Positions 2,595 to 18,744 of a stretch of DNA of 64,000 bases are shown in pieces; the stretch's first letter is position 1, and the number at the start of each line of letters is the position of its first letter. This DNA comes from an uncultured Bacillota bacterium. Its GTDB lineage: Bacteria > Sysuimicrobiota > Sysuimicrobiia > Sysuimicrobiales > Segetimicrobiaceae. A program made the translations under genes and the position numbers. The DNA is taken from assembly GCA_963804645.1 (NCBI GenBank), contig CAWDRG010000017.1, forward strand, positions 448,001 through 512,000. The letters run 5' to 3'. The notes beneath the pieces were generated by a model. It worked only from the letters and a program-made list of their open reading frames with translations. It did no database searches and was not told where the DNA came from.

Positions 2595-3752
2595 CTACCT
2601 GACGAAAAGCTCTCGAGGAAATTCGGTCAGCGGCTCGCATCCCCCGGGGGTCACGAGGACGGTTTCGCTCACGCCGACGCAGCCGACCCCGTAGTCGCGG
2701 AGGGCGGGAGGCATGTGAAAGACCATGCCCGGCTCCAGGCTGGTCGCGTCCCCCTTCCGGAGGCTGATGATGTGCCCCTCGTTCCAACCGGGCGGAAAGG
2801 CAAATCCCGCGGAATAGCCAGTGCGCTTTCGGAACGACTCGTACACGCCCGCCTCGACCATCACGGTCTGACACGCGCGGTCGACATCTTCGGCGGCCGC
2901 CCCGGGCCGCATCGAGGCGATCGCACGTTCGAGTCCTTCTCGGCACAGGCCGAACATGCGGCGCGTGTCGGCAGTGGGCTCGCCCAGGCTGACCGCGCGC
3001 ATCAGCGGCGCGATGTACCGGCCGCAGCACGCCGTCATCTCGAGCAGCACGGTGTCGTGCGGCTCAAGACGCCGCCGCTCGAACGTGGTATGCGGAACGC
3101 CGGCGCGGTAGCCGGACGTCACGATCGGATCGATCGGAAAGTACTCGGATCCGGCCCGGACCATCGCCGCCATCGCCGCGGCCGCGACGTCGTTCTCGGT
3201 GGCGCCGACGGCGCAGGCGTCGATCGCCGCGCGCATGCCGAGGGCGGTCCACGCGGCCGCCTGCCGCATGCGCGCCACCTCGCGGTCGGATTTCACCCGG
3301 CGCAGCCGCTCGACCGCGCCCGAGCCATCCGCGAGGTCGAAGCCTGCGAGCAGCTGACCGAGGCGGCGGCGGTTCGCCGCGTGCATCGCGGGCGCCGTCT
3401 CCTCGAGGGCGACGCCGCGCCGGTTCGCCGCACGGCGCGTCACTTCGTCGGCCAGCCGCTCCAGGGGATCCTCGTGATCGTCGTAGGTGACCACTTCGGT
3501 CCCCGCGGCGTAGAGCGCGGCGAGGTACGACTCCAGATACCGGACGAACAAGGTGGGCGACCCGCGGCGCGGGACGAGCAGCACCTGGAACGTCCGGCCG
3601 GCATACGTCTGATACCCGGTCAGGTAGAACACGCTCTCTTGCGCGAAGGCGAGAAACAGGTCCACCCCTCGACGCTCCAGCTCGGCCTGCAGCCGAGCGA
3701 GGCGGCCGGCGAACTCCTCCGGCGGAAACACGGGCGTGTGTGGAATCTGCAT
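2595..3752 (-). CDS. M24 (pita-bread) hydrolase, ectoine hydrolase EutD/creatinase-like
   Basis: Creatinase_N (YLTGY) plus M24 domain; RTGYSAG..FPPGWNEG..SLRKGD..LEPGMVFHMPP; metal-ligand positions replaced. Confidence 0.8.
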   Translation of the reverse strand: MQIPHTPVFPPEEFAGRLARLQAELERRGVDLFLAFAQESVFYLTGYQTYAGRTFQVLLVPRRGSPTLFVRYLESYLAALYAAGTEVVTYDDHEDPLERLADEVTRRAANRRGVALEETAPAMHAANRRRLGQLLAGFDLADGSGAVERLRRVKSDREVARMRQAAAWTALGMRAAIDACAVGATENDVAAAAMAAMVRAGSEYFPIDPIVTSGYRAGVPHTTFERRRLEPHDTVLLEMTACCGRYIAPLMRAVSLGEPTADTRRMFGLCREGLERAIASMRPGAAAEDVDRACQTVMVEAGVYESFRKRTGYSAGFAFPPGWNEGHIISLRKGDATSLEPGMVFHMPPALRDYGVGCVGVSETVLVTPGGCEPLTEFPRELFVR

Positions 3753-3795
3753 GCGTGCGTCGCTCCCTTCCGGCTCGCGGCCGATCTCGACCGCG

Positions 3796-4650
3796 CTACT
3801 CCCGGGCCCCGGCGAGCGCGCCGCGCGGCCGCCACCGGAGCAGCCGCCGCTCCACCACGCCGAGGACGATGTCCATGACGACCACGATCAGCAGGAGCGC
3901 CACGATCGCCGCCATCGTCACGCTCACGTTGAGTTCGTTGGCGGCCTCGTTCACGAGATATCCGAGCCCGAGGTTCGCGGCGATGAACTCCCCGGTCACG
4001 GCCCCGACGAGCGCCTCCGGCACGGCGATCCGGAGCCCGGTCATCAGGTACGGCACGGTGCTCGGCAGCGCGATCTTCCAGACCACATCCGCCCGGCGAG
4101 CGCCCATCACGCGGACCACGTGGACGAGCTGCGGGCTCACCTGGTACAGCCCCGCCGCCATGTTCATGAAGACCACAAAGAACACGAACAGCGCCGCGAG
4201 CACGACCTTCGGCGCCAGCCCCAGGCCGAACCACATCACGAACAGCGGCGCGAGCGCGATCTTTGGGACCGAGTAGACCGCGATCAGAAACGGCCTGAGG
4301 ACGCGCTGGAGGGTCTCTTCAAACGCGACGACGAGCGCCACCGCGACGCCGAACACCGCCCCGATCGCGTAGCCGCTCAGGACCTCCGTGACGGTCTGCA
4401 CGAGGTTCGGCCACAGGCGGCCGGACACCACGAGCCCCCAGAACGCGCGCGCCACGCCGCCCGGATCACCGACGTACTGCCGCTCGCCGAACCGCCCGGC
4501 AGCCACCGCCCACCCGCCGAGCGCGAGGACCAGCACGAGGGCCCGGCCCACCGCAACCGCGGCACCCCACGCCACCTCGTGCCGCCGCGCCCGGCGCCAC
4601 ACCTCAAGGTGCAGGCGCTGCTCGCGCGACACCGGCGCCGGCCCGCTCAC
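3796..4650 (-). CDS. NitT/TauT-family ABC transporter permease
   Basis: YSVPKIALAPLFVMWFGLG, ALVGAVTGEFIAANLGLGYL. Confidence 0.9.
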   Translation of the reverse strand: MSGPAPVSREQRLHLEVWRRARRHEVAWGAAVAVGRALVLVLALGGWAVAAGRFGERQYVGDPGGVARAFWGLVVSGRLWPNLVQTVTEVLSGYAIGAVFGVAVALVVAFEETLQRVLRPFLIAVYSVPKIALAPLFVMWFGLGLAPKVVLAALFVFFVVFMNMAAGLYQVSPQLVHVVRVMGARRADVVWKIALPSTVPYLMTGLRIAVPEALVGAVTGEFIAANLGLGYLVNEAANELNVSVTMAAIVALLLIVVVMDIVLGVVERRLLRWRPRGALAGARE

Positions 4651-4663
4651 GCGGCGGAGCCCG

Positions 4664-6382
4664 TCACTCGACGTGCTCCGCGGCGGACGCCGCCCGCACC
4701 GGCGGCGCGGAGAGCCGACGTTCCTCGTCGGGATCGCGCTCGATCGACCGCATCGAGACGCGGCCCCGCTCGTACAGCACCGTCCGGACCCACGCGGGAT
4801 CCTGCGCAGGGAAATCGTCCCGGTAGTGTGCCGCCCGGCTTTCGGTTCGCGCGAGCGCGCTCGCCGCGATGGCCGCGCCGACCTCGCACAGATCCGCGAG
4901 CTCGATCGCGGCGACCAGATCGCCGACCGTCTCCTGGGGCAGCGCGGCGGCCTCCGCCCGGATCTCGGCGAGGTCCCGCTGCGCGACGCGAAGGCCCTCG
5001 GCGGTCCGCACGATGCCGATGCCGAGCCACATGCGGTCCCGCAGGCGCGCCAGCAGGGCGTCCATCGCGGGCGACGCGTCGGTCGCCTCGCCGCGGACGG
5101 CCGCGATCCGGCGCGCCCACCGGTCGGCGGCGCGCTCGTCGATCCGCCCCGCGGGGCGCCCGCGCTCGCCGGCGGCCGCGATGCCGGCCCGATGCCCCAT
5201 CACCTGCGTCTCGGGCACCGCGTTGCTGTTGAGGCGGTTGCCGCCGTGGGTCCCGCCGGCGTTCTCGCCGGCCGCGTACAGGCCCGGCGTCGCGCTCAGG
5301 CCCGCATCGTCGGTGAGCACCCCGCCCATGAAAAAGTGCGCCTCCGGCGCAATCACGAGCGGGATTTCCCGGTAGTTGATGCCGCGCGGCTCGAGCCGTT
5401 CGATCACTTTCGTGTTCTCGAGGCGGAACTGCTCGTCGGAGACCTGGGAGACGTCGAGCAGCACCCCACCGTCCACGCTCAGGCCGGCGCGGATCTGGTC
5501 GAAGATGCCGCGCGCCGACACATCGCGGGTGGCGGTCTCTTTCTTGACCGGATCGTACGCCTCCATAAACCGCTCGCCGCGGCTGTTGTAGAGACGGGCG
5601 CCCGACACGAACGTCGACGGCTGGATCGGGACGCGGCTGTTCCGGAACGGCCGGATGAGGCGCCAGGGGTAGAACTGGATGAACTCCATGTCGCGCAGCG
5701 GCGCGCCGGCCCGGACGGCGAGCGCGTAGCCGCCGCCGGTCACGTCCACGGGGTTGCTCGTCACGCTGAACAAGCGGCCCGCGCCGCCCGCGGCGAGGAC
5801 GACGGCCCGCGCGCGGATCAGGCACCCCCCGATGCGGTCCCGCCGCACGCCGATCGCCCCAACCACGCGGCCGTCGTCGAGCAGCAGCTCGACGATCAGG
5901 GTGTTCTCGAGCGGGTGCACCCCGGAGGCGAGCGCGGCCTCGCGCAGCGGCAGGGTCATGTCGGTGCCGCGATAGTGAATCGGCGCGAGCACGCGCGGGT
6001 GCCGGTGATCCCCGCTCGGGGACAGATAGTACTGGCCGTCGCGCACCCGGAACTGGGCCCCGAGCGCCATCAACTCTTTGAGCCGCGCGGGCGCCTCGTC
6101 GGCGAGCGCCCGCACGAGCGGCCGCTCGTTCACCCACCCGCCGCCGGCGATGGTGTCGGCGTAGTGCTGCGCGGCATCGTCTTCGGGGTCGAACTCCGCG
6201 GACGCCGCCGCGTAGCCCCCGGTGGTGTTGGCGGACGAGCCGCTCTGGCCGAGCTTGCGCTTCACCGCGATAATCACGTCCGCGCCTGCCTGCCGCGCGC
6301 TGAGGGCGGCCCGGAGCGCGGCGAGCCCGCCGCCGACGATGAGGACGTCGGTCTCGAACGTCTCGAACGTCTCGAACGTCAC
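4664..6382 (-). CDS. FAD-dependent oxidoreductase, NadB/SdhA/FrdA flavoprotein family
   Basis: DVLIVGGGLA, DMEFIQFYP, AHFFMGG, GLYAAGE, HGGNRL, RTESRAAHYR. Confidence 0.85.
   Translation of the reverse strand: MTFETFETFETDVLIVGGGLAALRAALSARQAGADVIIAVKRKLGQSGSSANTTGGYAAASAEFDPEDDAAQHYADTIAGGGWVNERPLVRALADEAPARLKELMALGAQFRVRDGQYYLSPSGDHRHPRVLAPIHYRGTDMTLPLREAALASGVHPLENTLIVELLLDDGRVVGAIGVRRDRIGGCLIRARAVVLAAGGAGRLFSVTSNPVDVTGGGYALAVRAGAPLRDMEFIQFYPWRLIRPFRNSRVPIQPSTFVSGARLYNSRGERFMEAYDPVKKETATRDVSARGIFDQIRAGLSVDGGVLLDVSQVSDEQFRLENTKVIERLEPRGINYREIPLVIAPEAHFFMGGVLTDDAGLSATPGLYAAGENAGGTHGGNRLNSNAVPETQVMGHRAGIAAAGERGRPAGRIDERAADRWARRIAAVRGEATDASPAMDALLARLRDRMWLGIGIVRTAEGLRVAQRDLAEIRAEAAALPQETVGDLVAAIELADLCEVGAAIAASALARTESRAAHYRDDFPAQDPAWVRTVLYERGRVSMRSIERDPDEERRLSAPPVRAASAAEHVE
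6351..6380. repeat. 9-bp tandem repeat (GTCTCGAAC x3.3) encoding TFE-TFE-TFE-T
   Basis: Exact copies at 6351, 6360 and 6369. Confidence 0.9.
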
Positions 6383-6407
6383 GGGCGCGGCGCCCGCTCG
6401 ACCGGCG

Positions 6408-7568
6408 TCACGGACGCTCGCCCACCACGTGCAGCACCCGCGGGAACTGCGTCAGGACGTCGCATCCCCCCTCCGTCACGAGCACCGTCTCGCTCCAGCC
6501 CAATCCGTAGCGGCGCGGCACGCGCAGCGCGGGCGGCATGTGAAACACCATCCCGGGGACGAGCGGCGTCGGGTCGTCGCGCCGCAGGCTGACGATGTGC
6601 CCTTCCCCCCAGTCCGGCGCGTAGCCGACCCCCACCGAATACCCGGTGCGCTTCCGGAAGTACGGCTCGTAGCCCGCGTCCTCGAGGACCGTCCGGCACG
6701 CCGCGTCGACGTCTCCGCTCGTCGCTCCGGGCCGGATCGCCGCGATCGCCGCGTCGAGCGACGCGATGATCGTCGCGGCCATCGCGTGCACCTCGCCGCG
6801 GACGGGCGCGATCGCGGCGCTGCGCATCAGCGGGCCGAAGTAGCGGCGCAGGCAGCCGCCCAGCTCGACGAGCACCGTATCCCCTGCCTCGAGCCGTCGG
6901 TGTCCGAACGTCAAATGGGCGACACCGGAGCGCCACCCCGACGTGACGATCGGGTCGCCCGCGAAGAAGTCGGACCCGGCGCCCAGCATCGCGCCGTAGG
7001 CCGCCGCGGCGACATCGTCCTCGGTCACCCCGGCCCGAATCGCGCCGAGGGCCGCGGCCATGCCCGCCTCGGTGACGCGGCACGCGCGCCGGATCAGCGC
7101 CACCTCGGACGCCGACTTGATCCGCCGCCCCGCCTCGACCATGCCGGACGCGTCGACGACGGCGCCGAGCCCGGCCCGCAGCCGGTCGACCGCCCCCGCG
7201 GCGACGAACCCGCCTTCCAGCTCGATGCCGACCGGGGCCCCGAGCCACCCGCGCCGGCGGAGCAGGCCGGTGAGCCGCTCGCCGGGGTCCTCCGCGTCGC
7301 CGAACGTCTCGAACTGATCGATCCAGCACGTCGTCTCGGCGACCGTGCGCTCCATCTCCCGGATCAACAGGACGACGGCGTCGGGACGCACGACCAAGGT
7401 CTGGAAGCTGCTGAACCCGATCGTCTCGTACCCGGTCAGGTAGCAGACGTTCTCGGGCGCGAACACCAGCAGGGTCTCGATCGCGCGGCGCGCCATGCGC
7501 GAGCGCAGCGCGTCCAATCTGGTCTGGTACTCGCCGACCGTGAAGGCCGGCACCCACTCACTCGTCAT
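6408..7568 (-). CDS. second EutD/creatinase-like M24 hydrolase
   Basis: YLTGY, ELGGCLRRYFGPLMR, RTGYSVG.GYAPDWGEG, LVPGMVFHMPP; clear paralog of 2595-3752. Confidence 0.8.
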   Translation of the reverse strand: MTSEWVPAFTVGEYQTRLDALRSRMARRAIETLLVFAPENVCYLTGYETIGFSSFQTLVVRPDAVVLLIREMERTVAETTCWIDQFETFGDAEDPGERLTGLLRRRGWLGAPVGIELEGGFVAAGAVDRLRAGLGAVVDASGMVEAGRRIKSASEVALIRRACRVTEAGMAAALGAIRAGVTEDDVAAAAYGAMLGAGSDFFAGDPIVTSGWRSGVAHLTFGHRRLEAGDTVLVELGGCLRRYFGPLMRSAAIAPVRGEVHAMAATIIASLDAAIAAIRPGATSGDVDAACRTVLEDAGYEPYFRKRTGYSVGVGYAPDWGEGHIVSLRRDDPTPLVPGMVFHMPPALRVPRRYGLGWSETVLVTEGGCDVLTQFPRVLHVVGERP

Positions 7569-7590
7569 CGACGCCTCCTGGCGGAACGGC

Positions 7591-8466
7591 TCACCCGAGC
7601 GGGCTGCGCTCGCGGGGCGTCCAGCGCACCCACGCCCGCTCGACCGCCGACACCCCCGCGTTCATCAGGGTCACCACGATCAGCAGCCCGAAGATCGCGG
7701 CGAACACGTCGGCCGTCCGGTAGCGCGAACTCGCCGCGCTGATGAGGTAGCCGACACCGCGGTTGCTGCTGATGAACTCGCCGACGACGGCGCCGATCAG
7801 CGCGGCCGGCACGGTGATCCGGAGCGCGACGACGATGAACGGCGTCGCGCTCGGCAGCACGACCTTCCGAAAGACCGCGACCGGGCCGGCGCCCATCACC
7901 CGCACGACCTGGACCAGCCCGGGCGGCGCGGTCGCGAGGCCCGCGAGCGTGTTGAAGAACACGATGAAAAACACGAACACCGCGGCGAGCAGGATCTTCG
8001 GCAGGAGGCCGATGCCGAACCACAGGATCATGAGCGGCGCGAGCGCGATCTTGGGCGTCGCGTACGCGAGCAGGAGCAGCGGGCGCAGGACCGGCTCGCC
8101 ACCCGGGATCAGCCACGTGACGACCGCGGCCAGCAGGCCCGTGGACGCGCCCAGCGCGTATCCCGCCAGGGTCTCGGTGAGCGTGTACCGCAGATTGAAC
8201 CACAGGGTGCCGTCCCGGGCGATGCGGCCAAACGCCGAGGCGACGCTGACGGGATCGCTCAAAAACAGGTGGTCGACGAGCCGCCCCGAGGCGCCCCACC
8301 ACGCGGCGAGCAGCGCCGCGAGCAGCAGCACCTGCCAGGTCGCGACCGCGGCCGTCAGCCTCCGGTCCCGCCGGACGGCGTCGGCCGCCTCGCGCGCGAG
8401 AATCGCCTGTTCGCGCGGGTCGGCGCGGTCCGGGGCCGCGGGGCCCAGCGCCCGGCCGTTACTCAC
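7591..8466 (-). CDS. NitT/TauT-family ABC transporter permease
   Basis: YATPKIALAPLMILWFGIG, ALIGAVVGEFISSNRGVGYL; GTG start overlapping the ATPase gene end. Confidence 0.9.
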   Translation of the reverse strand: MSNGRALGPAAPDRADPREQAILAREAADAVRRDRRLTAAVATWQVLLLAALLAAWWGASGRLVDHLFLSDPVSVASAFGRIARDGTLWFNLRYTLTETLAGYALGASTGLLAAVVTWLIPGGEPVLRPLLLLAYATPKIALAPLMILWFGIGLLPKILLAAVFVFFIVFFNTLAGLATAPPGLVQVVRVMGAGPVAVFRKVVLPSATPFIVVALRITVPAALIGAVVGEFISSNRGVGYLISAASSRYRTADVFAAIFGLLIVVTLMNAGVSAVERAWVRWTPRERSPLG

Positions 8467-9337
8467 CGTCCGCCTCCCGCCCGCTGGCGATCTCGGCGCG
8501 CAGATCCGCCCAGATGGCGTCGTAGACCGGGGCAAACCCCGGGGCTTCGTGGATGTGAAAGACGTCCCGCGGCCGGGGAATCGCGACCTCGCGGACCTCC
8601 TTGATCGTCCCCGGGGCGCGCGTGAAGATGCCGATGCGGTCCGACAGCGCGATCGCCTCGACCAGATCGTGCGTCACGAAGACGACTGTGCGCCCGCTGC
8701 CCTGCCACAACCGCAGCAGCTCGTCCTGCAGCACGAGGCGCGTCTGTGCATCGAGCGGCCCGAACGGCTCGTCCATCAGGATCACGTTGACGCTGTCGTC
8801 GACGAGCGTGCGGACGATCGACACCCGCTTGCGCATGCCCCCGGACAGCTCGTGGGGATAGTGGTGTTCGAAGCCCCGCAGGCCGACCCGGTCGAGATAG
8901 GCGAGCGCCCGCGCCGTCCGCTCGGCGCGCCCGACGCCCTTGAGCTCGAGCGCGATCTCGACGTTCCCGAGCGTCGTGCGCCACGGCAGCAGGTTGTCGT
9001 CCTGCGTGATGTACCCGCCGCGGGTGTTGACGCCGCGAATCGGCTGCCCGTCCTGCAGCACCGCCCCGTCCGTCGGCGCCGTCAGGCCCGCGAACATGTT
9101 CAGCACGGTCGACTTGCCGCACCCCGACGGCCCGATCAGCGTCAGGAACTCGCCCCGCCGCACGGTCAGGTTCACGGCGCGCACCGCCGTCATCGCCCGG
9201 CGGCTGCGTCGGGTGCGCGAGACGAACACCTTGTAGACGTCGCGGGCCTCCAGGGCGACCGGCCCATCCGCCGACACCGCGCGCGCCTGTGGTCCTACCG
9301 TCGCCGCCGAAGGCTCCTCAGCGGCGCGGAGCCCCAT
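8459..9337 (-). CDS. NitT/TauT-family ABC transporter ATP-binding protein
   Basis: GPSGCGKST, LSGGMRKR, ILMDEPF, FVTHD. Confidence 0.93.
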   Translation of the reverse strand: MGLRAAEEPSAATVGPQARAVSADGPVALEARDVYKVFVSRTRRSRRAMTAVRAVNLTVRRGEFLTLIGPSGCGKSTVLNMFAGLTAPTDGAVLQDGQPIRGVNTRGGYITQDDNLLPWRTTLGNVEIALELKGVGRAERTARALAYLDRVGLRGFEHHYPHELSGGMRKRVSIVRTLVDDSVNVILMDEPFGPLDAQTRLVLQDELLRLWQGSGRTVVFVTHDLVEAIALSDRIGIFTRAPGTIKEVREVAIPRPRDVFHIHEAPGFAPVYDAIWADLRAEIASGREADGE

Positions 9338-10220
9338 CGAGCCGCTCGCGCAGAAGACGCATGATGACCTGCCACTCGTTGTACCCGGTCCGGCGCGGCG
9401 CGGTGGCGGCCTGCCCGCGGGCCCAGATGACCTTCCGGCCGAGCTGCTCCGCCGCGGCGAAGTCGACGCTGCCCGGAGGCGAGCACAGGTCGATGATCAC
9501 GACGTCGTCGGCCGTGCGGGCGAGCAGTTCGCGCGTCAGCACCAACCCGGATGAGGAGCTGACGATCAGCGGAAACCGGTCGATCGTCCCGGGAAGCTCC
9601 GACAGCGGGAGCGCGGTCATCCCCATCGCCCACGCGCGCGCGAGCTGGGAGGGATTGCGGGCCGCGAGCGTCACCCGGGCCTGCAGCCCGAGAAACGCCT
9701 GGGCGACGCTGAGACCGACGCGGCCGAGCCCGAGACAGAGCATCGGCAGGCCGAGGATCGTCTCCTCGGTGTTCTCGATCGCCACCTTCACCGCGCCCTC
9801 GGCGGTCGGCACGGCGTGCAGAATCGCGAGCGGATCGTCGTCCCCGTATCCGACCGGAGTCACCGGGGTGCCCTTCGCCCACGCTTCGATCTGCGGGTTC
9901 GCCCGCCCCATGAACATCAAGGCGCCCGGGGCGGCGCCGCGCAGCACTTCGGTCGTGGTAAACAGTTTCTCCTTTGCGAACGGGGCATACAGGCTGTGGT
10001 CCGTGCCGAGTCCGGGGATCGGGGCCGAGATCAACCTGGCGCCCGCGACGGCCTGCGCCAGCGAGGGCGACGCGGGCGCACCCGCCGCCTGGTCGGCCCC
10101 GGGCGCGGTCCCGTAGTGCTGCACCGACGCGCCCGACGCGCGCGCCTGGCGCATGTGCTCGAGCGCCCGCCGGTCGCCCCCGACGACCGCGACCGTCCAC
10201 CCCGACAGATCCACCGCCAT
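9318..10220 (-). CDS. dipicolinate synthase subunit A (DpaA/SpoVFA)-like NAD(P)-binding protein
   Basis: AVVGGDRR N-terminus, AVPTAEGAV, GLGRVG Rossmann motif, IIDLCSPPGSVDF, all resembling SpoVFA. Confidence 0.75.
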   Translation of the reverse strand: MAVDLSGWTVAVVGGDRRALEHMRQARASGASVQHYGTAPGADQAAGAPASPSLAQAVAGARLISAPIPGLGTDHSLYAPFAKEKLFTTTEVLRGAAPGALMFMGRANPQIEAWAKGTPVTPVGYGDDDPLAILHAVPTAEGAVKVAIENTEETILGLPMLCLGLGRVGLSVAQAFLGLQARVTLAARNPSQLARAWAMGMTALPLSELPGTIDRFPLIVSSSSGLVLTRELLARTADDVVIIDLCSPPGSVDFAAAEQLGRKVIWARGQAATAPRRTGYNEWQVIMRLLRERLDGAPRR

Positions 10221-10292
10221 CCTGTCCCTCCCTCTGACGCGGCGGCAGCGGGATCCCGGAGGCTGCCGGCCGCCCCGCGGGCTAGGCGCCCG

Positions 10293-11321
10293 CTACTTGA
10301 CGAAGCTGTTGGTCCACAGGACGCCCTCGGCGGTCGACGCCGCGACGGGCTGCCCGATCGTCTTGAAGATGTCGAGGTACCGCTGGACGCCCGCCTGCGA
10401 GAATCTCCCGTCGGGACTGATCGCCGGGAGGGTTGCGTCGAGTCCGACCGCGAGGCTGGCGGCCGGGGTATCGGGGAAGTACTTCTGTCCGAGAATCTGC
10501 AGCGCCTCGGTTTTGTTCGCGCGAATCCACGCCGTGGCCGCGGTCACCGAACGGGCGAACGCGGTCAGCGCCGGCCCGTTCTGCCGCGCGTACGCGGCCG
10601 AGGTGAAGAACCCGTCGTAGGTCGTGTTCGTGAATTCCGGCACGTCCCCCGCCGTGTCGCGGATGATGATCTGGCCCACGCCCTCCTGCTCCAGCGTCTG
10701 CGGGAGCGGCGGCGAGAGCAGGAACGCGTCGATCCGGCCGGCCCGCAGCGCGGCCGCCAGCCCGGCGACCCCGCCGACCTGCACCAGATTCGCGTCACGA
10801 TCGGGGTTGAGACCCGCTTTGATCAGGAAGTACCGCGCAAACACGTCCGTCGGCGCGCCGGGTGCCGTGATTCCGATGTTCAAGCCCTTGAGCGCCGCGT
10901 ACCGCCTCGGCAGCGACGAGAAGCGGCTGACGCCGGTCTTCTGGATGACGCTGTTTCGAACGATGAGGTCGAGCGTCACGCGCGTGACCAGGTTGTAGAA
11001 CAAGATCAGCTGCTTCCCCTGTGCCTGCACGTTGGCGATGCCCAGCGGGTCGAGATCGGACAGCTGGGCGTCGCCCGACAGCACCGTCGCCGGCCCGAGC
11101 GCTCCGCTGTTGATCTCCTGGAAGCTAAAATCGACCCCGTTTTGGGCGAAGAAGCCCTTCTCCTGCGCGATGAAAATCGGCGCGATGTACAGGACCCGAA
11201 ACCCCGTCTGCTTGATCTTGAATCGGGGCGCCTGCGCCAGACCGGTCGCGGGCGCGAAGGCCACCGACAGCAGCACCAGCAGCGCGAGTACCGTCCGGAT
11301 CGTTCGGCTCGAGGCTCGCAT
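10293..11321 (-). CDS. NitT/TauT (NMT1/THI5-like) ABC substrate-binding protein
   Basis: Signal peptide, YIAPIFIAQEKGFF, LKGLNIGITAPG. Confidence 0.9.
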   Translation of the reverse strand: MRASSRTIRTVLALLVLLSVAFAPATGLAQAPRFKIKQTGFRVLYIAPIFIAQEKGFFAQNGVDFSFQEINSGALGPATVLSGDAQLSDLDPLGIANVQAQGKQLILFYNLVTRVTLDLIVRNSVIQKTGVSRFSSLPRRYAALKGLNIGITAPGAPTDVFARYFLIKAGLNPDRDANLVQVGGVAGLAAALRAGRIDAFLLSPPLPQTLEQEGVGQIIIRDTAGDVPEFTNTTYDGFFTSAAYARQNGPALTAFARSVTAATAWIRANKTEALQILGQKYFPDTPAASLAVGLDATLPAISPDGRFSQAGVQRYLDIFKTIGQPVAASTAEGVLWTNSFVK

Positions 11322-11451
11322 CGTCCCTCCTCGTGATTCCGCGCGCGCGAAACCGCGCGCGCCGTGCGGGATGTGGGAGGATCAGTACGCCGCCCGCGCA
11401 GCGCATTCCTTCACGGCGCGGCCGCACGGTCGCGATCCGGTGCGCTCGTGC

Positions 11452-12276
11452 CTACTCGGGAAGGTCCTCGGTCGGAGTCGAGATTGCCCGGTACGCATCG
11501 GGGCGCCGGTCTCGAAACAGCGGGAATCGCTGGCGGGCTCGGATCACGTCCTGCCGGTCGATCACCGCGGTGATGATCTGCTCTTCGGTGCCGCTCGCCT
11601 GCACCAGGATCTTCCCGTCCGGGCCGATCACCATGCTCTTGCCGGACATCCGCCACCCGCCCTCCTGGCCGACGTGGTTGCACGCGGCCAGAAACACGCC
11701 GTTCTCCAATGCCCGGGTCGTGAGAAAGTTCTCCCACGGATCGCCGATCGGCGTCGCGTACGGGGCGAGAATGAGCTCCGCCCCATTCAGCGCGAGGCAC
11801 CGGCACGATTCGGGGAAGAGATTGTCGTAGCACGTCGACACGCCGGCCCGCCACTCGCCGATGCGGAACGTCGGGAACGACGACCCGCCCCGGAAGTAGA
11901 TCTTCTCGAGGCTGAGCAGCGCCGCCGGATGTACCTTGCGGTACTTGCCCGCCACCGCGCCCTCCGGGTCAATCAACATCGCGGTGTCGTAGTAGAGACC
12001 CGGCGCGGCCATCTCGAAGATGGTCGACAGGATCCACAGGCGGTGGCGGCGCGCCAGCGCCTTGATGCGCGTTTGCGTGACGCCGTCGTCGGGCTCCGCG
12101 TAGTCCATGTACTTCGCGTCCCGGTATTGCGGGAAGTACTCGTGGTTGAAAAACTCCGGCAGCACGATGAGCTCCGCCCCGTCGGCGGCGGCGTGATCGA
12201 CGAACGCGGCGGCACGCTCGACGTTCGCGTCCCGGGCGGCCCTCTGGCTGGTCATCTGCACGAGCGCGATCCGCAT
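11452..12276 (-). CDS. carbon-nitrogen hydrolase (nitrilase/amidase superfamily)
   Basis: Catalytic triad E (LPEFF), K (YRKVHP), C (STCYD); RDRRPDAY tail. Confidence 0.92.
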   Translation of the reverse strand: MRIALVQMTSQRAARDANVERAAAFVDHAAADGAELIVLPEFFNHEYFPQYRDAKYMDYAEPDDGVTQTRIKALARRHRLWILSTIFEMAAPGLYYDTAMLIDPEGAVAGKYRKVHPAALLSLEKIYFRGGSSFPTFRIGEWRAGVSTCYDNLFPESCRCLALNGAELILAPYATPIGDPWENFLTTRALENGVFLAACNHVGQEGGWRMSGKSMVIGPDGKILVQASGTEEQIITAVIDRQDVIRARQRFPLFRDRRPDAYRAISTPTEDLPE

Positions 12277-12555: not shown

Positions 12556-13277
12556 GGCGCCACCGCGCGCGCGAAGTGCATCGCCGGCAGCTCGCGCGCC
12601 GCCGGCACGGTCACGCTCGGGCGCGACGTCACCGTGATCCGCAGCCCGAGGCCGCGGAGTCCATCCACGACGCCGCCGCGGATGCTCATGGCCCCGGTCA
12701 GGGCCTCGGGGTCGCCGATCGCCACGATGTCGTACGGGGCCGCCAGCCGCTGCCCCCCCGCGATGATCGTGCCCCCGACCTGGCTCAGGCCGGTGGTCGC
12801 GACGACGCGGTACCCGCTCACCGCGATCGCCTCGGCGCCGGCCGCCCACAGCTCGTTGGCAATGCTGGCCACGTCGACGTACTGGACGACCGCGGGTGCC
12901 GCGCCCCCGGCCGGCGTCGACCCGTCGTCGACGGTGACGCGCACGCCGGGCCCGGTAAGGGCGACCGCCCCAGCCGCGATCCGGAGCCGCTCCAGCTCCT
13001 CCGCGAGCGCGCGATCCGAACTGCGCCGCTGCGTCGCCGCGGTCTCGAACGCGGTCAGCCGCGTGGTCAGCGACGCGACCTGCGCTTCAAGGCCCCGCCG
13101 CGCCTCGCGCTCCTGCCCGAGCATCGTGGCGAGCGCGTACACGTTGCGCGTGGGGACGCCTTCCTGGCCCGACAGCGCCCGTCCCGCCCGCAGCTGCACG
13201 ACGACGAGAAACCCAAGCGCCATCAAGACCACGGCGAAGAGCACCTGCCGCCAGGCCGTGCTACTCCTCCCAGACAT
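12552..13277 (-). CDS. DUF881 family protein
   Basis: N-terminal TM, coiled coil, GPGVRVTVDD, NELWAAGAEAIAV, PYDIVAIGDP. Confidence 0.88.
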   Translation of the reverse strand: MSGRSSTAWRQVLFAVVLMALGFLVVVQLRAGRALSGQEGVPTRNVYALATMLGQEREARRGLEAQVASLTTRLTAFETAATQRRSSDRALAEELERLRIAAGAVALTGPGVRVTVDDGSTPAGGAAPAVVQYVDVASIANELWAAGAEAIAVSGYRVVATTGLSQVGGTIIAGGQRLAAPYDIVAIGDPEALTGAMSIRGGVVDGLRGLGLRITVTSRPSVTVPAARELPAMHFARAVAP

Positions 13278-16200
13278 TCCCCTCGCCGAAGAGCTGCTCG
13301 AGCTCCTGTTGCAGATCCTCGTCGTCGCGCAACCGGGACTGCACCGGGATGACGTGCTCGCCGTCGTCCGTGACGACGTGCGCGCAGACCTGCCGTTCGC
13401 CCGGGTGCGCCGCGAGGTACTCGCAGAGCTGCTCGATCTCCTCCCGCGTGGTCACGCGCACCCGCAGCACGCGCCGCCCGGCATGGGCCGCCTCGGCGGG
13501 TTCAGGCGGTGCGGGCCGCACCGCCGTCGCGGTCGCCGCCGTGCGCGCGGCGCCGCCTCCGTTGCCGTTGGACGCGCCGGCGCGCCCGGGCCCCCGGGCG
13601 GCGCGGGGCGCCCGCGGGGGCACCTCGAGATGCGCCGCCTCCTCCGGTGTCGCCGGGAGCGGGATCACCTCGTCGCAGAGCAGCTTCACGCCCTGCTCCT
13701 CGATGTCGAGCCTGCCCCGCAGCAGTACCACGGTGTCCCGCTTGAGCGCCAACCCATGCTGCTCGTACGCCCGGGGAAACACCAGGACCTCCACGCTGCC
13801 CGTGAGATCTTCCAGCGTCAGGAACGCCATCGCCGAGCCGGCCCGCGTGATGCTGCGCTTCACCGAGCCGACCAGCCCGCCGACGAGGACGTCCTGGCGA
13901 TCTCGGAGCTCCGCGAGCTGTCCGATCGTGGCGGTGACCTTCGCGTCGAGCACCGGCTGCCACCGGCGAAGCGGGTGGTCGGAGATGTAGAGGCCCAGCA
14001 TCTCCCGCTCCATCGTGAGGCGCTCCTCGGAGCTGAACTCCTGTGCCGTCGCATCGGGGCCGGCCGCGAGCGGCACCGCGCTCCCGAGGTCGAACAGACC
14101 GGTCTGCCCCTGCGACCGCGCGCGCTGGCTCCGCTGGGCCTGCTCGACGGTCTCGTCGAGCGTCTGCAGCATCTGCGCGCGCGTCGTCCCGAGCGAATCG
14201 CAGGCCCCCGCCTTCACCAGGCTGGCGAGCACCCGCTGGTTGACCTGGCGGGTGTCCACCCGGGCGCACAGGTCCGCGAGGCTCGAGAACGGCCCGCCCG
14301 ACTCCCGTGCCGCGATGATCACCTCCACCGCGCCCACCCCGACGTTCCGGATCGCGGCGAGCCCGAACCGAATCGCCCCGCCGACCACGGTGAACGATGC
14401 GTGGCTCTCATTCACGTCGGGGGGCAGGATCTCGAGCCCCATCCGCTGGCACTCGGCGACGGCCTGCGCGATCCGCTCCATGTCGCCGGCGGTACTGCTC
14501 AGGACCGCGGTCATGTACTCGGCCGAGTAATGCGCCTTGAGGTAGGCGGTGTAGTAGGCGATCAGCCCGTAGCAGGCGGCGTGCGCGCGGTTGAAGCCGT
14601 ACCGTGCGAACGGCTCGAACTGTTCGAAGATCTGGTCGACGATCTTGGCCGGCACGCGGTTCTTGCGCGCGCCCTCGACGAACTTCTCGCGCTGCGCGAG
14701 CAGGCGGTCCTTGATCTTCTTGCGGATCGCGTAGCACAGGACGTCGGCCTCGGCCATCGTGTAGCCCGCGACCGCCTGCGCGACCGTCATGATGTCTTCC
14801 TGGTACACCATCACCCCGTAGGTCTCTTTGAGCACCGGCTCGAGCAGGGGGTGGAGATACGTCACCGGCTCCTGGCCGTGCTTGCGCCGGATGTACGCGG
14901 GAATGTTCGCCATCGGTCCCGGCCGGAAGAGCGCCACCATGGCCATCACGTCTTCGATCCGGTCGGGCTTGAGCTCCCGCAGCCAGCGCGTCATCCCCCG
15001 GCCCTCCAGCTGGAAGATGCCGGTGGTGTCGCCGGACCCCAGAAGCGCATAGGTCGGCTGATCGTCGAGCGGCAGGCGCTGGAGGTCAATCTCCGCTCCC
15101 CGCGTCTCGCGGATCATCTTGATCGCCTGGTCGAGGATGGTCAAGTTCGTGAGGCCGAGAAAGTCCATCTTCAAGAGGCCGAGGCGGGCTACGCTGTTCA
15201 TGTCGTACTGCGTCATCAACAGATCGCCCTTGGTGGCCCGCTGCAGCGGCACCTGGTCGGTCAGGGGGTCGCGCGAGATGATCACGCCCGCGGCGTGGGT
15301 GCTGGCGTGCCGGGCCACGCCCTCGAGCTTCTGCGCCATGTCGAGGAGCTGGCGGATCTGCGGGCTGGCCTCGGCGGCCCCCCGGAGCTCGGGCTCGGCG
15401 GCGAGCGCGTCCTTCAGCGTCACGTTCGCGCCGGGCACGAGTTTCGCGATGCGGTCGACGTCGCCGTACGGCAGGCTCATCACCCGCCCGACATCGCGGA
15501 TCGCCGCACGCGCCCCCATCGTCCCGAACGTGATGATCTGCGCCACCCGGTCCGCGCCGTACTTGTCGACCACGTACTTGATGACCTCGTCGCGCCGGCT
15601 GTCCATGAAGTCCACGTCGATATCCGGCATCGTGTACCGCTCGAGGTTCAGGAACCGGTCGAACGGGAGACGATACGCGATCGGATCGACATCGGTCACC
15701 CCGCACGAGTACAACACAAGGCTGCCGGCCGCCGACCCGCGGACCGTGGTCAGGATGCCGCTGCGCCGCGCGAAGTTGACGAAGTCCTGCACGATCAGAA
15801 AGTAGGCCGCGTAGCCCGTCTTCGTGATCACGCCGAGCTCGTACTCGAGCCGCTCGCGGCGCGCCGGCGTCATCTCCCCGTAGATCCGGACGATTCCCCG
15901 TTCGCAGAGCCCTCGAAGATAGGAATCCGGCGTCTCCCCCTTGGGGACGTCGACGTGCGGCAACTTGATCGTATCGGTGTCGAGCGTGACGGTGCACCGC
16001 TCGGCGATCACCAGCGTGTTGCGGAGCGCCTCGGGCAGATCGGGGAAGCGTGCCGCCATCTCTTCGGGGCTCTTCAGGTAGAAATCCGGCGTGTCGTTCA
16101 TCCGGGGCTTATCGTGCTGGTCGAGGGTCATCCCCATCTGGATGCACATCAGGGCGTCCTGCGCGTCGGCCTCGTCCCGGGTCACGTAGTGGACGTCGTT

Positions 16201-16815
16201 CGTTGCCACCAGCGGCAGCCCGAGCTCCTTCGCCAGCCGCACGACCCCCGCGGCTACGGTGCGCTGGTCGGGGAGCCCGTGATTCTGGACCTCGAGGTAG
16301 AAGTTCTCGGGGCCGAGGATGTCGCGGTAGGCGACGGCGAGCTCGCGGGCCGCCTTCCAATCGTCCCGGAGAATGGCCCGTGGGATCTCGCCCTGCAGGC
16401 ACCCCGACAAGCCGATCAGCCCCTTCGCGTGCCGGCTGAGGAGCTCCCGGTCGATCCGCGGCTTGTAGTAAAAGCCGTCCAGATGCGCGGCGGTCGTCAG
16501 CTTGAGCAGGTTGCGGTAGCCGTCGTCGCTGGCGGCCAAGAGCACGAGGTGAAACGACGACGCGTCGAGCTTCGGGTCGCGATCGGTCATGCGCCGGGCC
16601 GCGACGTAGGCCTCCATGCCGATGATCGGGCGGATGCCGTGCGCCTTTGCGCTCTCGTAGAACTCCACGGCGCCGTACATCACGCCGTGGTCGGTGATCG
16701 CGAGCGCCGGAATCCCGAGCGCGGCGGCTCGCTGCATCAGGGGGTCGATTCGACTCTCGCCGTCGAGGAGCGAATACTCAGTGTGCAGGTGGCAGTGTGC
16801 GAACTCAGCGGGCAT
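13261..16815 (-). CDS. dnaE: DNA polymerase III alpha subunit
   Basis: HLHTEYSLLDG PHP domain, RGSAAGS, PDIDVDF, YGFNRAHA, OB fold; no intein. Confidence 0.97.
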   Translation of the reverse strand: MPAEFAHCHLHTEYSLLDGESRIDPLMQRAAALGIPALAITDHGVMYGAVEFYESAKAHGIRPIIGMEAYVAARRMTDRDPKLDASSFHLVLLAASDDGYRNLLKLTTAAHLDGFYYKPRIDRELLSRHAKGLIGLSGCLQGEIPRAILRDDWKAARELAVAYRDILGPENFYLEVQNHGLPDQRTVAAGVVRLAKELGLPLVATNDVHYVTRDEADAQDALMCIQMGMTLDQHDKPRMNDTPDFYLKSPEEMAARFPDLPEALRNTLVIAERCTVTLDTDTIKLPHVDVPKGETPDSYLRGLCERGIVRIYGEMTPARRERLEYELGVITKTGYAAYFLIVQDFVNFARRSGILTTVRGSAAGSLVLYSCGVTDVDPIAYRLPFDRFLNLERYTMPDIDVDFMDSRRDEVIKYVVDKYGADRVAQIITFGTMGARAAIRDVGRVMSLPYGDVDRIAKLVPGANVTLKDALAAEPELRGAAEASPQIRQLLDMAQKLEGVARHASTHAAGVIISRDPLTDQVPLQRATKGDLLMTQYDMNSVARLGLLKMDFLGLTNLTILDQAIKMIRETRGAEIDLQRLPLDDQPTYALLGSGDTTGIFQLEGRGMTRWLRELKPDRIEDVMAMVALFRPGPMANIPAYIRRKHGQEPVTYLHPLLEPVLKETYGVMVYQEDIMTVAQAVAGYTMAEADVLCYAIRKKIKDRLLAQREKFVEGARKNRVPAKIVDQIFEQFEPFARYGFNRAHAACYGLIAYYTAYLKAHYSAEYMTAVLSSTAGDMERIAQAVAECQRMGLEILPPDVNESHASFTVVGGAIRFGLAAIRNVGVGAVEVIIAARESGGPFSSLADLCARVDTRQVNQRVLASLVKAGACDSLGTTRAQMLQTLDETVEQAQRSQRARSQGQTGLFDLGSAVPLAAGPDATAQEFSSEERLTMEREMLGLYISDHPLRRWQPVLDAKVTATIGQLAELRDRQDVLVGGLVGSVKRSITRAGSAMAFLTLEDLTGSVEVLVFPRAYEQHGLALKRDTVVLLRGRLDIEEQGVKLLCDEVIPLPATPEEAAHLEVPPRAPRAARGPGRAGASNGNGGGAARTAATATAVRPAPPEPAEAAHAGRRVLRVRVTTREEIEQLCEYLAAHPGERQVCAHVVTDDGEHVIPVQSRLRDDEDLQQELEQLFGEGNVWEE

Positions 16816-16847
16816 CCAGCGTCTCCTGGCAGTGGACAACTGCTCTC

Positions 16848-16869
16848 ATTGTACCAGAACTGGTGTACG
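16848..16869 (-). promoter_or_regulatory. dnaE promoter (extended -10) with LexA-box-like site
   Basis: Sense strand CGTAC-ACCA-GTTCT-gg-TACAAT. Confidence 0.55.
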
Positions 16870-16904
16870 GTTTCCTGCTCGGGGCGCTCGGCTCGACCGG
16901 CAAC

Positions 16905-17195
16905 TCACCGATCGTGGTGGCGCTCCTCGATCAGCACCGTTAGCGCGCGGCCGCGCCGGTCCTTGGGACGTGGACGGTCCCAAAACTCCCGGGACAGGGC
17001 GCGCTCGGCTGGCCGTGCCAATCCCGCCCGACATAGGAACGCCACGCGGGCTTCGTGCCGGGCTGGCACGCCGACGGGGCAGAGACGGGCCACCGGCACG
17101 TTGCGGTCTGTCACGATCGTCTCCTCGCCCGCCTTGGCCGCGTCCACGTACTCGCTCAAACGGGCCTTCCGCGCGGCGATCGATGCGCGCCTCAC
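16905..17195 (-). CDS. Phd/YefM-family antitoxin (orphan)
   Basis: ASIAARKARLSEYVDAAKAGEETIVTDRNVPVARL matches the Phd pattern; no toxin ORF follows. Confidence 0.8.
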   Translation of the reverse strand: MRRASIAARKARLSEYVDAAKAGEETIVTDRNVPVARLCPVGVPARHEARVAFLCRAGLARPAERALSREFWDRPRPKDRRGRALTVLIEERHHDR

Positions 17196-17283
17196 CGGAT
17201 CACCCCCGGGGGAAACTCGAGACCACTATAGTCGCACCGCATGCCTTCGGCAAGCGGTGCTGACGACTCTCAGCCGCCGAGGT

Positions 17284-18744
17284 TCACCCGCCGCCTGCGC
17301 CGATGCGTTCCCGGAGCAGCCGATTGACGACCGCCGGGTTCGCCCGTCCGCGCGTCTGCTTCATCACTTGCCCGACGAGGAACTGCACCGCCCGGTCCTT
17401 GCCGGCACGCAGGTCCCCGACGGGTCCCGGGTGGTCCGCGATCACCTGGTCCACCAGCCGCAGGAGCTCCGCCTCGTCGCTGATCTGCACGAGCCCGCGC
17501 GCCTGCACGATCTCTTCGGCGCTCTTCCCGCTCTTGAGCATTTCCTCCAGCACTTCCTTGGCCGACGGCCCGTTCAGCGTCCCCCGTTCGAGCAGGGCCA
17601 GGAGCCCGGCCAGGGCGGTCGGTGTCAGCGCCACCCCGTCGATCTCGACGCCCTGGGCGTTGAGATAGGCGGCGAGGTCGCCCACGATCCAGTTCGCGGC
17701 GATCTTGGGGTGCGGAAACCGCCGCACGGTCTCCTCAAAAAACTCGGCCATCGGGCGAGTCTCCACCAAGAGACCCGCGTCGTGCTCCGGGAGGCCGTAC
17801 GCCTCGACGTACCGGCGGCGGCGGGCATCCGGCATCTCCGGCAGGTCCGTGCGCACGCGAGCGATCCAGGAGTCGTCGACCTGCACCGGCAGGAGGTCGG
17901 GCTCGGGGAAATAGCGGTAGTCGTGCGCCTCCTCTTTCTCCCGGGACGCGAACGTGATCCCGCGGTCCTCGTCCCAGTGCCGCGTCTGCTGCACCACCGC
18001 CTCCCCGCGCGCCAGCAGGTCCCGCTGGCGCGCCTCTTCCGTGCGCAGCGCCCGCTCGACCGCGCGCAGCGAGTTCATGTTCTTGATCTCCGTGCGCGTC
18101 CCGTACGGCTCGCCGGGTCGGCGGAGCGACAGGTTGGCGTCGCAGCGGAGCGTCCCTTCCTCCATCCGCCCCGTCGTCACGCCGGCGTACTGTAAGATGG
18201 TGCGCAGGCGCGTCAGGAAGTCCCTCGCCTCTTCGGGCGAGCGCAGATCGGGATCGGTCACGACCTCCATCAGCGGGGTGCCGCTGCGGTTGTAGTCCAC
18301 GAGGCTGTGCCCCACGGCGTGCACGAGCTTGCCGGTATCCTCCTCGAGGTGCACGCGGCGGATGCCGACCCGGCGTGGTCTGCCGCCGAGCGCGAGTTCG
18401 AGCGCACCGTGGGTCGCGAGCGGCGGGTGCCCCGCGTACTCGTACTGCGAAATCTGGTAGTTCTTCGGGATGTCGGGATAGTAGTAGTTCTTGCGGTGGA
18501 ACTGGCTCTCGGGATGCACCCGGCAGCCGAGGACGACCGCCGTCCGGAGTCCGAGGTCGACGGCACGCCGGTTCAGGACCGGCAGCGACCCGGGCAGCCC
18601 GAGGCACACCGGGCACGTCAGCGTGTTCGGCGGCGCGCCGAACGCGACGGCGCAGCCGCAGAACATCTTGCTCGCGGTGCTCAGTTGGACGTGCACTTCG
18701 AGCCCGATCACCGTTTCGTACACGGCGACGCCGGAGGGGCTCAT
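17284..18744 (-). CDS. gatB: Asp-tRNA(Asn)/Glu-tRNA(Gln) amidotransferase subunit B
   Basis: [37 protein letters not shown]. Confidence 0.97.

Follow-up and report, generated by a model that had tools for sequence, protein, structure and literature searches.

A nine-gene importer and enzyme cluster of an uncultured Segetimicrobiaceae bacterium, probably for the breakdown of a small nitrogen-rich compound

What is taken up and degraded by a cluster that joins a NitT/TauT-type importer to two M24 hydrolases, a relative of the dipicolinate synthase subunit DpaA, a stand-alone flavoprotein, and a nitrilase-family amidase? The question is raised by positions 2595-12276 of a 64,000-nucleotide stretch (the window) from an uncultured Bacillota bacterium of peat (Segetimicrobiaceae; assembly GCA_963804645.1, contig CAWDRG010000017.1, positions 448,001 to 512,000). 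Judged by the families that they encode, the nine genes probably break down a small nitrogen-rich compound. An earlier description made from the DNA letters (the original prediction) had named these families in one co-oriented run. All nine genes were there, with strong Pfam matches, and its account of the gene content was borne out in every item. In order of transcription, the genes are as follows:

11452-12276, minus strand: CN-hydrolase, an amidase of the nitrilase superfamily (Pfam CN_hydrolase, E 8e-58, 196 bits against a gathering threshold of 23.2)
10293-11321, minus strand: exported NitT/TauT (NMT1-like) substrate-binding protein (Pfam NMT1_2, E 3.8e-25)
9318-10220, minus strand: DpaA-like NAD(P)-binding dehydrogenase (Pfam DpaA_N, E 4e-18, plus an NAD-binding domain)
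8459-9337, minus strand: ATP-binding cassette (ABC) ATPase (Pfam ABC_tran, E 5e-29)
7591-8535, minus strand: ABC permease 1 (Pfam BPD_transp_1, E 1.8e-23)
6408-7568, minus strand: M24a, predicted DoeA-type amidinohydrolase (Pfam Creatinase_N and Peptidase_M24)
4664-6382, minus strand: stand-alone flavoprotein of the NadB/TfrA/SdhA fold (Pfam FAD_binding_2 and Succ_DH_flav_C, E 2.4e-67)
3796-4650, minus strand: ABC permease 2 (Pfam BPD_transp_1, E 6.5e-33)
2595-3752, minus strand: M24b, predicted second DoeA-type hydrolase (Pfam Creatinase_N and Peptidase_M24)

The spacing between these genes ranged from a 77-base overlap to a 130-base gap, and every enzyme of the window cluster scored below the curated NCBIfam cut-off of its closest model. 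Literature searches found no description of this gene combination, in line with the original prediction that it matches no recognized pathway. Our reading, held tentatively and at a little less than an even chance, is of a conserved, patchily distributed operon that would import and catabolize a small, carboxylate-bearing, nitrogen-rich cyclic amidine or guanidine compound resembling ectoine. The imported compound is probably not ectoine itself.

A syntenic core of importer, DpaA-like protein, and flavoprotein

Related loci were collected from a scan of one genome per species, which gave 14 loci, all in metagenome-assembled genomes (MAGs; DpaA-like identity of 61-80% in 11 loci and 42-45% in 3), and from a metagenome scan with a 24-sequence alignment, which contributed 46 further loci. 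The nine window proteins and 15 accessory proteins were placed on all loci by tblastn. Left out before counting were the window's own locus and the other loci of related genomes (L015-L019), loci 98-100% identical to the window (L020, L022, and L056), a duplicate contig (L050), loci without a DpaA match (L064 and L065), and paralogous loci (L012-L014). The 51 orthologous loci counted include some close relatives and hence are not independent.

The ATPase gene lay directly downstream of the DpaA-like gene in 40 of the 40 loci with at least 400 bases downstream, and the binding-protein gene lay directly upstream in 34 of 38; its place was occupied by a DHDPS-family gene in L023 and L024. The flavoprotein gene was downstream of the DpaA-like gene in 11 of the 13 loci with at least 6 kb downstream, the exceptions being L002 and L023. 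An aminotransferase was considered as its substitute in these two loci and was rejected for L002, where the flavoprotein (54%) and an M24b orthologue (69%) were found about 10 kb further on in the same contig. A DoeA-type M24 hydrolase (at least 38% identity) was present in eight of the nine loci with wide flanks. In almost every locus, enzyme genes were interleaved with those of the transporter. Importer, DpaA-like protein, and flavoprotein thus make up the invariant core, and the M24s and amidases are frequent but exchangeable. The original prediction had looked for a recurring set of DpaA-like protein, two M24s, and flavoprotein and would have been undermined by a lack of recurrence. Because the core is strongly syntenic, recurrence held; the membership of the set did not.

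The gene order of the window (architecture A) was found in L001, L008, and L037, and in L056, a contig of the window's own species. L026 follows it too, but with an isochorismatase gene ahead of M24a and a binding-protein gene where M24b would be. In the commonest arrangement (architecture B), a divergent left arm encodes DHDPS-like, M24, M20, and Ldh_2 proteins, and the right arm runs binding protein, DpaA-like protein, ATPase, permease, flavoprotein, permease, and M20. In 14 loci, the DHDPS-like and binding-protein genes stood back-to-back. Of the 12 loci whose sequence extended at least 1 kb past DHDPS, 11 had M24 and M20 genes next (exception, L049), followed by Ldh_2 in 9, with a GntR gene beyond Ldh_2 in L006 and L030. 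The accessory genes of architecture B were DHDPS-like, Ldh_2, and, once, OCD; the Ldh_2 partner was AllD-like in NCBIfam, below the cut-off, and neither the Ldh_2 nor the DHDPS partner had a specific match among solved structures. Architecture C (L002 and L023) had a second transporter and additional genes for DHDPS, isochorismatase, aminotransferase, and GntR proteins. Architecture D (L004 and L059) consisted of binding protein, DpaA-like protein, ATPase, two permeases, an ArgE-type M20, and flavoprotein, with no M24 in the locus; in L004 an isochorismatase gene followed the flavoprotein gene, and the L059 sequence began within the DpaA-like gene and stopped within the flavoprotein gene.

The carriers were MAGs labelled Alphaproteobacteria/Hyphomicrobiales, Armatimonadetes, and Candidatus Geohabitans, together with soil and peat contigs. 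The flavoprotein had 1,186 metagenomic homologues at an E value of at most 1e-50, and none of the 120 listed came from a named isolate. The 120 DpaA-like homologues listed were likewise all from metagenomes or MAGs, with no named isolate among them. When 72,556 plasmids were searched for a cultured carrier by tblastn with the flavoprotein, none matched at 1e-60. Among 41 related genomes, a flavoprotein orthologue was present in 2 (the window's own and a same-genus MAG, G004) and a DpaA-like protein in 5 (two at 61-62% and two at 40-42% identity). In G004 (L088, G004:C6:216000-235900), the locus from gatA to polA is kept at 86-88% nucleotide identity. In the related genome G002 and the congener G006, synteny with the window stops just past the Glrx-like gene.

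The importer has the composition of a NitT/TauT system, with an NMT1-type binding protein, BPD_transp_1 permeases, and an ABC ATPase encoded together (Pfam). A signal-like N-terminal segment is visible in the translation of the binding protein, whose closest solved structures were 3qsl (an unannotated Bordetella protein, E 1e-22), then NrtA and CmpA; pyrimidine-binding ThiY matched weakly (E 7e-4). The closest NCBIfam models of the ATPase were taurine and nitrate ABC ATPases (TauB and NtrCD), and permease 1 was SsuC/TauC-like, all below cut-offs. A single permease gene is usual in NitT/TauT systems such as Tau, Ssu, and Nrt. Here, the two permeases are distinct paralogues, the queries cross-matching at only 46-51% identity on L001.

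The cluster is flanked by housekeeping genes, with adk and polA downstream and a Glrx-like gene, DUF881, dnaE, and gatB/gatA upstream. As the window has about 72% G+C, six-frame lists of open reading frames are full of spurious frames. One of them, a 1,853-codon frame (12634-18195, plus strand) antisense to dnaE and gatB and without a Pfam match, was rejected as a gene and regarded as a high-G+C artefact. A scan for promoter-like sites (0 against 0.5 expected) and terminator-like sites (10 against 3.4 +/- 2.3 expected, all inside genes by their coordinates) was uninformative for a genome of 72% G+C. Short contigs from peat metagenomes spanned the junctions of CN-hydrolase with binding protein, binding protein with DpaA-like protein, and DpaA-like protein with ATPase. 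Since one of the runs behind these contigs may be the source sample of the window, they are no independent confirmation of the junctions. Seven peat runs from two studies contained 46-76% of the sampled words of the cluster. A depth spike at 8646-9439 reflects cross-mapping of conserved ABC ATPase sequence.

Enzyme families and their active sites

The flavoprotein was closest to TfrA (409 bits against a cut-off of 718) and nadB (TIGR00551, 312 bits against 452.75) in NCBIfam, and to mycobacterial SdhA, FrdA, and NadB among solved structures. An alignment of 16 cluster orthologues with two paralogues from the window's genome located what is kept and what is replaced. The two-domain architecture and the FAD-binding motifs are those of NadB, SdhA/FrdA, and TfrA, and the motifs AH(F/Y).MGG and GNRL, with their His and Arg, were kept in 16 of 16 orthologues. 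In the same 16, unlike those enzymes, QFHPTG had become QFYPWR (HPT to YPW(R)), the (E)..RGEG loop was replaced by QPSTF with the catalytic proton-transfer Arg changed to Phe, and the His for covalent FAD attachment was missing (GSSxxT; GSSAN in the window protein). Both paralogues carry canonical QFHPTG and (E)..RGEG/RGAG. No gene for an iron-sulfur (Fe-S) protein was found among the nine cluster genes by Pfam. The flavoprotein lacks both the motif pair of canonical NadB/SdhA/FrdA/TfrA enzymes (QFHPT with the proton-transfer Arg) and the SdhA/FrdA combination of covalent-FAD His with an adjacent Fe-S subunit gene. The loss of HPT and the catalytic Arg rules out an ordinary aspartate oxidase or fumarate reductase. 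The NadB/SdhA-like label of the original prediction therefore holds for the fold but not for the substrate-binding and catalytic residues. A carboxylate site beside a pocket of Tyr, Trp, Phe, and Arg would fit an amino or imino acid whose side group is not acidic and may be cationic or planar.

M24a and M24b were both closest to DoeA among solved structures (6twk; E 1.3e-43 and 4e-40, respectively). Against NCBIfam DoeA_2 (NF038259; cut-off 575) they scored 272.8 and 253 bits, and against eutD (TIGR02993; cut-off 613) 189 and 166 bits. At five positions that we take to be the M24 metal ligands, prolidase 6xmr has D,D,H,E,E, and M24a and M24b have E,P,Y,P,E, the same replacements as in DoeA 6twk. 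The pattern was found in all cluster M24s, with the second-position Pro changed to Ala in architecture B. The motif GY..G...P.W.EG is common to the cluster M24s and DoeA; M24a retains the DoeA form PDWGEG and M24b has the variant PPGWNEG. By these residues the cluster M24s are DoeA-type enzymes and not peptidases, and they are unlikely to be prolidases because four of the five canonical metal ligands are missing. They appear to be relatives of ectoine hydrolase with predicted like chemistry, placed outside its orthologous group because they are about 30% identical to annotated rhizobial DoeA and because one carrier MAG (G045) has a separate true DoeA/EutD on another contig (G045:C3:472283-473449, 760 bits against 613).

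M24s of 38-40% identity with the same ligand pattern also occur on plasmids of cultured bacteria, pAt of Agrobacterium fabrum (L078, 4362-13735) and a Pantoea vagans plasmid (L079, 4432-13346), where the ligand-poor, DoeA-type protein is annotated 'Xaa-Pro peptidase'. Both operons encode an amino acid ABC importer, an M20, and an MR/MLE enzyme; the further genes are for a DHDPS-family protein and a pyridoxal phosphate-dependent aminotransferase in Pantoea, and for a D-amino-acid transaminase and a 2-hydroxyacid reductase in A. fabrum. They resemble the left arm of architecture B and are a possible experimental entry point.

The DpaA-like protein aligned over its full length with Bacillus-type DpaA (3d4o, E 1e-32, and 2rir). 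It scored 211.5 bits (E 1.6e-62) against DpsA (NF006162; cut-off 261) and 183.9 bits against spore_dpaA (TIGR02853; cut-off 319.65). GxGxxG and PTAEG were invariant in 24 homologues, and IDL.S.PG is also shared with DpaA. ESM Atlas labels were DpaA-family only. The best match to DpaB (TIGR02852) in the genome had 20.2 bits against a cut-off of 229 and lay on another contig. A complex prediction for the flavoprotein and the DpaA-like protein (score 0.00) has no bearing either way.

The plasmid relatives of the DpaA-like protein (only 28-34% identity) belong to a different cluster. This second conserved cluster, around a 34-42% identical paralogue, was found in L012, L013, L014, L018, and L019 and in the plasmid loci L066 and L067. 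It has a conserved trio with an M24 that bears the canonical metal ligands and an isochorismatase, beside which stand an octopine/nopaline dehydrogenase-family protein (Octopine_DH), an MR/MLE enzyme, and several amidohydrolases (content pooled across loci, the short ones showing part only). The plasmids belong to Aminobacter (Aminobacter sp. MSH1 pAM01, L066), Shinella, and Phyllobacterium (Phyllobacterium zundukense, L067); L066 and L067 add cytosine deaminase and RidA, and L066 alone adds D-amino-acid dehydrogenase and malate synthase G. The second cluster, present in cultured bacteria, looks uncharacterized.

The CN-hydrolase was closest to N-carbamoylputrescine amidase AguB in NCBIfam (TIGR03381, 166 bits against 410.25) and, among solved structures, to PH0642/3ivz, Nit2, N-carbamoylputrescine amidohydrolase, and DCase. 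Its translation shows the motifs LPEFF, YRKVH, and STCYD, which we take to be the Glu-Lys-Cys triad of nitrilases. It is a probable terminal deamidase or decarbamoylase. Other loci have other amide hydrolases. The M20 of L006 passes the models 'hydantoinase/carbamoylase family amidase' (260 against 204) and NF009527 (496 against 461), with AllC and ErtE as named relatives; it is the only architecture B copy that was scanned, its counterparts in the other 10 loci being matched by tblastn alone. Related loci also have an ArgE/DapE-type M20 (236 against 217.6), an isochorismatase-family protein closest to RutB and BiuH, below the cut-off (L002, L004, L023, L026, and L046), an amidase-signature protein closest to AtzE and GatA, below the cut-off (L001), and Amidohydro_1 proteins (L007 and L008). 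We read this exchange of unrelated hydrolases as a putative non-orthologous displacement of one deamidation step, their closest named relatives being enzymes for terminal carbamoyl or amide groups.

In the congener G006, an orthologue of the CN-hydrolase (83% identity) lies outside any such cluster (L087, G006:C190, 8499-10539). Its neighbors are a gene for a Creatininase-family ring hydrolase, Opp-type permeases split by an IS110-family transposase, and an M20 fragment.

A candidate pathway and its alternatives

From these families, a pathway of five steps may be proposed. Import of the compound (step 1) would use the NMT1-type binding protein together with one ATPase and two permeases that differ from each other. 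The two metal-free DoeA-type M24s would then add water across the ring C-N (amidine) bond of the cyclic amidine or guanidine, giving an open-chain N-acyl or N-carbamoyl diamino or amino acid (step 2). A terminal amidase would take off the acyl or carbamoyl group as NH3 (plus CO2) or as acid (step 3); here this would be the CN-hydrolase, and elsewhere a carbamoylase-type or ArgE/DapE-type M20, a RutB-like isochorismatase, or an AtzE-like amidase. In step 4, the flavoprotein would turn an amine into an imine by oxidizing the carbon adjacent to the carboxylate of a substrate with a non-acidic side chain, as suggested by the kept His/Arg carboxylate pair and by the Tyr, Trp, Phe, and Arg that have replaced the second-carboxylate and proton-transfer residues. 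In step 5, the resulting 2-imino or 2-oxo acid, possibly a cyclic ketimine, would be reduced or oxidized by the DpaA-like NAD(P) enzyme. Step 5 is suggested by the cyclic imine substrate of DpaA itself (dihydrodipicolinate) and by the DHDPS, Ldh_2, and OCD neighbors with their known ketimine roles. As given in the part of the source available, DHDPS-like, Ldh_2, and OCD families process cyclic ketimines in hydroxyproline and D-lysine catabolism (PMC4113996). No report of DpaA-like proteins as ketimine reductases was found, and 'dipicolinate synthase' did not occur in any of the 12 papers listed out of 33 found.

The original prediction was partly supported. Its ring opening and deamidation fit the DoeA-type M24s and the exchange of amidase families, but its order, with the redox change ahead of ring opening, found no support, as L004 and L059 have the DpaA-like protein and flavoprotein with no M24 in the locus. 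Gene content, recurrence, and the lack of a described pathway stood; CN-hydrolase membership, step order, and the core as first stated did not.

Several observations weigh against the pathway proposed here. Only the window's own species (L015, L020, and L022) has the CN-hydrolase gene next to the cluster; a remnant was found in G004, and by tblastn the gene was absent from every other related locus. Its membership of the operon, assumed in the original prediction, is uncertain. G004 is without 983 bases holding the whole DpaA-like gene (window 9308-10290) and without 536 bases inside the CN-hydrolase gene (window 11635-12170). Either these two genes are dispensable, or the G004 MAG is decaying or misassembled, and co-loss, decay, and misassembly are indistinguishable because the assembly is 65% complete with many frame breaks, even in dnaE. 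None of the 15 peat-contig joints shown among 68 matched these deletions. Ring opening is not universal to the core, since architecture D has no M24; a search of the L004 genome with the M24b query found no DoeA-type M24 (completeness of this MAG not established). Because all scores but that of the L006 M20 fall below cut-offs, a ureido intermediate would be named mostly after the nearest relatives of the amidases. The residue roles in the flavoprotein are carried over from FrdA, SdhA, and NadB: we take the lost His and Thr to hold the distal carboxylate, the lost Arg to transfer the proton, and the kept His and Arg to hold the proximal carboxylate. To our knowledge, no NitT/TauT binding protein has a known ligand of the cyclic amidine or guanidine class.

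The main rival, which we judge unlikely, is a variant cluster for ectoine and 5-hydroxyectoine. M24a and M24b would be the ectoine and hydroxyectoine hydrolases, the CN-hydrolase or M20 would stand for EutE, the flavoprotein for diaminobutyrate transaminase, and the DpaA-like protein for EutC or the semialdehyde step. DoeA provides the closest solved structure and the closest NCBIfam model of the M24s. The fold, non-canonical ligand positions, and motifs of M24a and M24b, and the logic of a ring hydrolase followed by an amide hydrolase, are those of DoeA/EutD and DoeB/EutE in Halomonas, Ruegeria, and Sinorhizobium. The aromatic residues of the flavoprotein might also suit a cationic ring. In the part of one report available, putative clusters of Thermodesulfobacteriota and Gram-positives combine two co-directional eutD homologues with an M20-type amidohydrolase and lack eutE and ssd (PMC13188858). 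Unlike the window cluster, they have eutB, eutC, atf, thrA, and adh and TRAP, MFS, BCCT, or Ehu transporters, and within that part no NitT/TauT importer, DpaA-like gene, or NadB-like flavoprotein is reported for any of them (PMC13188858). The M24s themselves score 166-285 bits against cut-offs of 575 and 613, less than half of what is called for, are only about 30% identical to rhizobial DoeA, and coexist with a true DoeA in G045. By Pfam annotation, the window cluster has no eutB, eutC, eutA, enuR, or atf, and ssd is not among its genes. EutE is absent, as the original prediction had said: AstE_AspA (PF04952, the EutE/DoeB family) had no match in the 96.8%-complete genome, with a positive control in E. 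coli. Known ectoine importers, as far as the partial sources extend, come from other transporter families, the DpaA-like protein and flavoprotein are extra to ectoine catabolism, and the carbamoylase-type M20 and RutB/AtzE-like partners suggest a carbamoyl group in place of an acetyl group.

A second alternative, which we regard as improbable, is a route made of non-standard enzymes for pyrimidine carboxylates such as orotate/dihydroorotate or for ureides such as those of the allantoate type. The ring would be oxidized or reduced by the flavoprotein and DpaA-like protein, the ring or amidine cleaved by M24, and the product decarbamoylated. The exchangeable partners are closest to AllC, ErtE, RutB, BiuH, AtzE, and AguB, and Ldh_2 is AllD-like below the cut-off, but among these relatives no curated cut-off is reached except by the L006 M20 subfamily. 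The flavoprotein keeps its His/Arg carboxylate site beside new aromatic residues, and pyrimidine-binding ThiY belongs to the family of the binding protein, though the match is weak. As in reductive pyrimidine and hydantoin utilization, a redox enzyme and a ring hydrolase are joined to a carbamoylase-type amidase (N-carbamoyl amidohydrolase), and the alternatives of M20 and CN-hydrolase for the last step mirror the known decarbamoylases by family name. A metal-free M24 takes the place of dihydropyrimidinase or hydantoinase, however, and the redox enzymes are from other families. DoeA/creatinase-type M24s act on amidines and guanidines and are not known to act on cyclic ureides or amides, and Pfam annotation found no xanthine, uricase, allantoinase, or Pyd genes in the window cluster.

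An equally improbable third alternative is a pathway for cyclic imino acids or D-amino acids of the hydroxyproline, pipecolate, or D-lysine type. A ketimine formed by the flavoprotein would be reduced by the DpaA-like protein, with the hydrolases merely freeing the imino acid from an N-acyl or peptide precursor. In the part of the source available, such pathways have a flavoprotein with an NAD(P) reductase and known roles for the DHDPS-like, Ldh_2, and OCD families that neighbor related loci (PMC4113996). The Amidohydro_1 genes flanking L008 are closest to a 'Xaa-Pro dipeptidase' model (282 bits against 500), and the A. fabrum and Pantoea plasmids set a DoeA-type M24 beside M20, MR/MLE, DHDPS, and D-amino-acid transaminase genes. 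Against it, the M24s lack four of the five metal ligands expected of a prolidase, the flavoprotein has the NadB/SdhA fold instead of that of D-amino-acid oxidase, and the window cluster has no DHDPS, Ldh_2, proline-racemase-family, or aldehyde dehydrogenase genes by Pfam annotation.

Synthesis or degradation of dipicolinate, with the DpaA-like protein and flavoprotein as a DpaAB-like pair and a DHDPS-like partner in some loci, is very improbable. DpaA is the closest family, with full-length similarity and the PTAEG and IDL.S.PG motifs in common, a DHDPS-family gene lies directly beside the DpaA-like or binding-protein gene in many loci, and DpaA works with a flavoprotein in Bacillus. Unlike dipicolinate synthase (DpaA/DpaB, SpoVFA/SpoVFB), however, the DpaA-like protein scores under the DpsA and DpaA cut-offs and sits inside an importer operon without a sporulation context. 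The genome has no DpaB, the cluster flavoprotein is from a different superfamily than DpaB, no DHDPS gene is in the window cluster, and the M24s, amidases, and importer are left unexplained. Least credible is a chance arrangement of unrelated enzyme genes between the genes of an importer, since, although accessory genes differ between architectures and G004 lacks the DpaA-like gene and most of the CN-hydrolase, the interleaved order is kept across Alphaproteobacteria/Hyphomicrobiales, Armatimonadetes, and Candidatus Geohabitans MAGs and soil and peat contigs, so that synteny largely refutes it.

Significance for the enzyme families and their carriers

Two elements of this catabolic importer-plus-hydrolase operon are new: a flavoprotein with a rebuilt active site, and a relative of DpaA that stands apart from spore biology. 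We consider it evenly balanced whether the core represents an undescribed pathway for a nitrogen compound widespread in soil and peat, carried almost only by uncultured bacteria, in which the flavoprotein would form a new catalytic subfamily of SdhA/NadB and relatives of DpaA would act more generally, beyond dipicolinate synthesis in spores, for instance as cyclic imine or ketimine oxidoreductases. The automatic labels 'dipicolinate synthase subunit A', 'fumarate reductase (CoM/CoB) subunit A', 'aspartate oxidase', and 'Xaa-Pro peptidase' are contradicted by the active-site evidence. If the pathway proposed here is true, the metal-free DoeA branch of the M24 hydrolases would reach beyond ectoine, the well-studied SdhA/NadB flavoprotein superfamily would gain a new reaction type, DpaA-like proteins would have their first role outside sporulation, and a common, overlooked route of organic nitrogen turnover in peat and soil would become testable.

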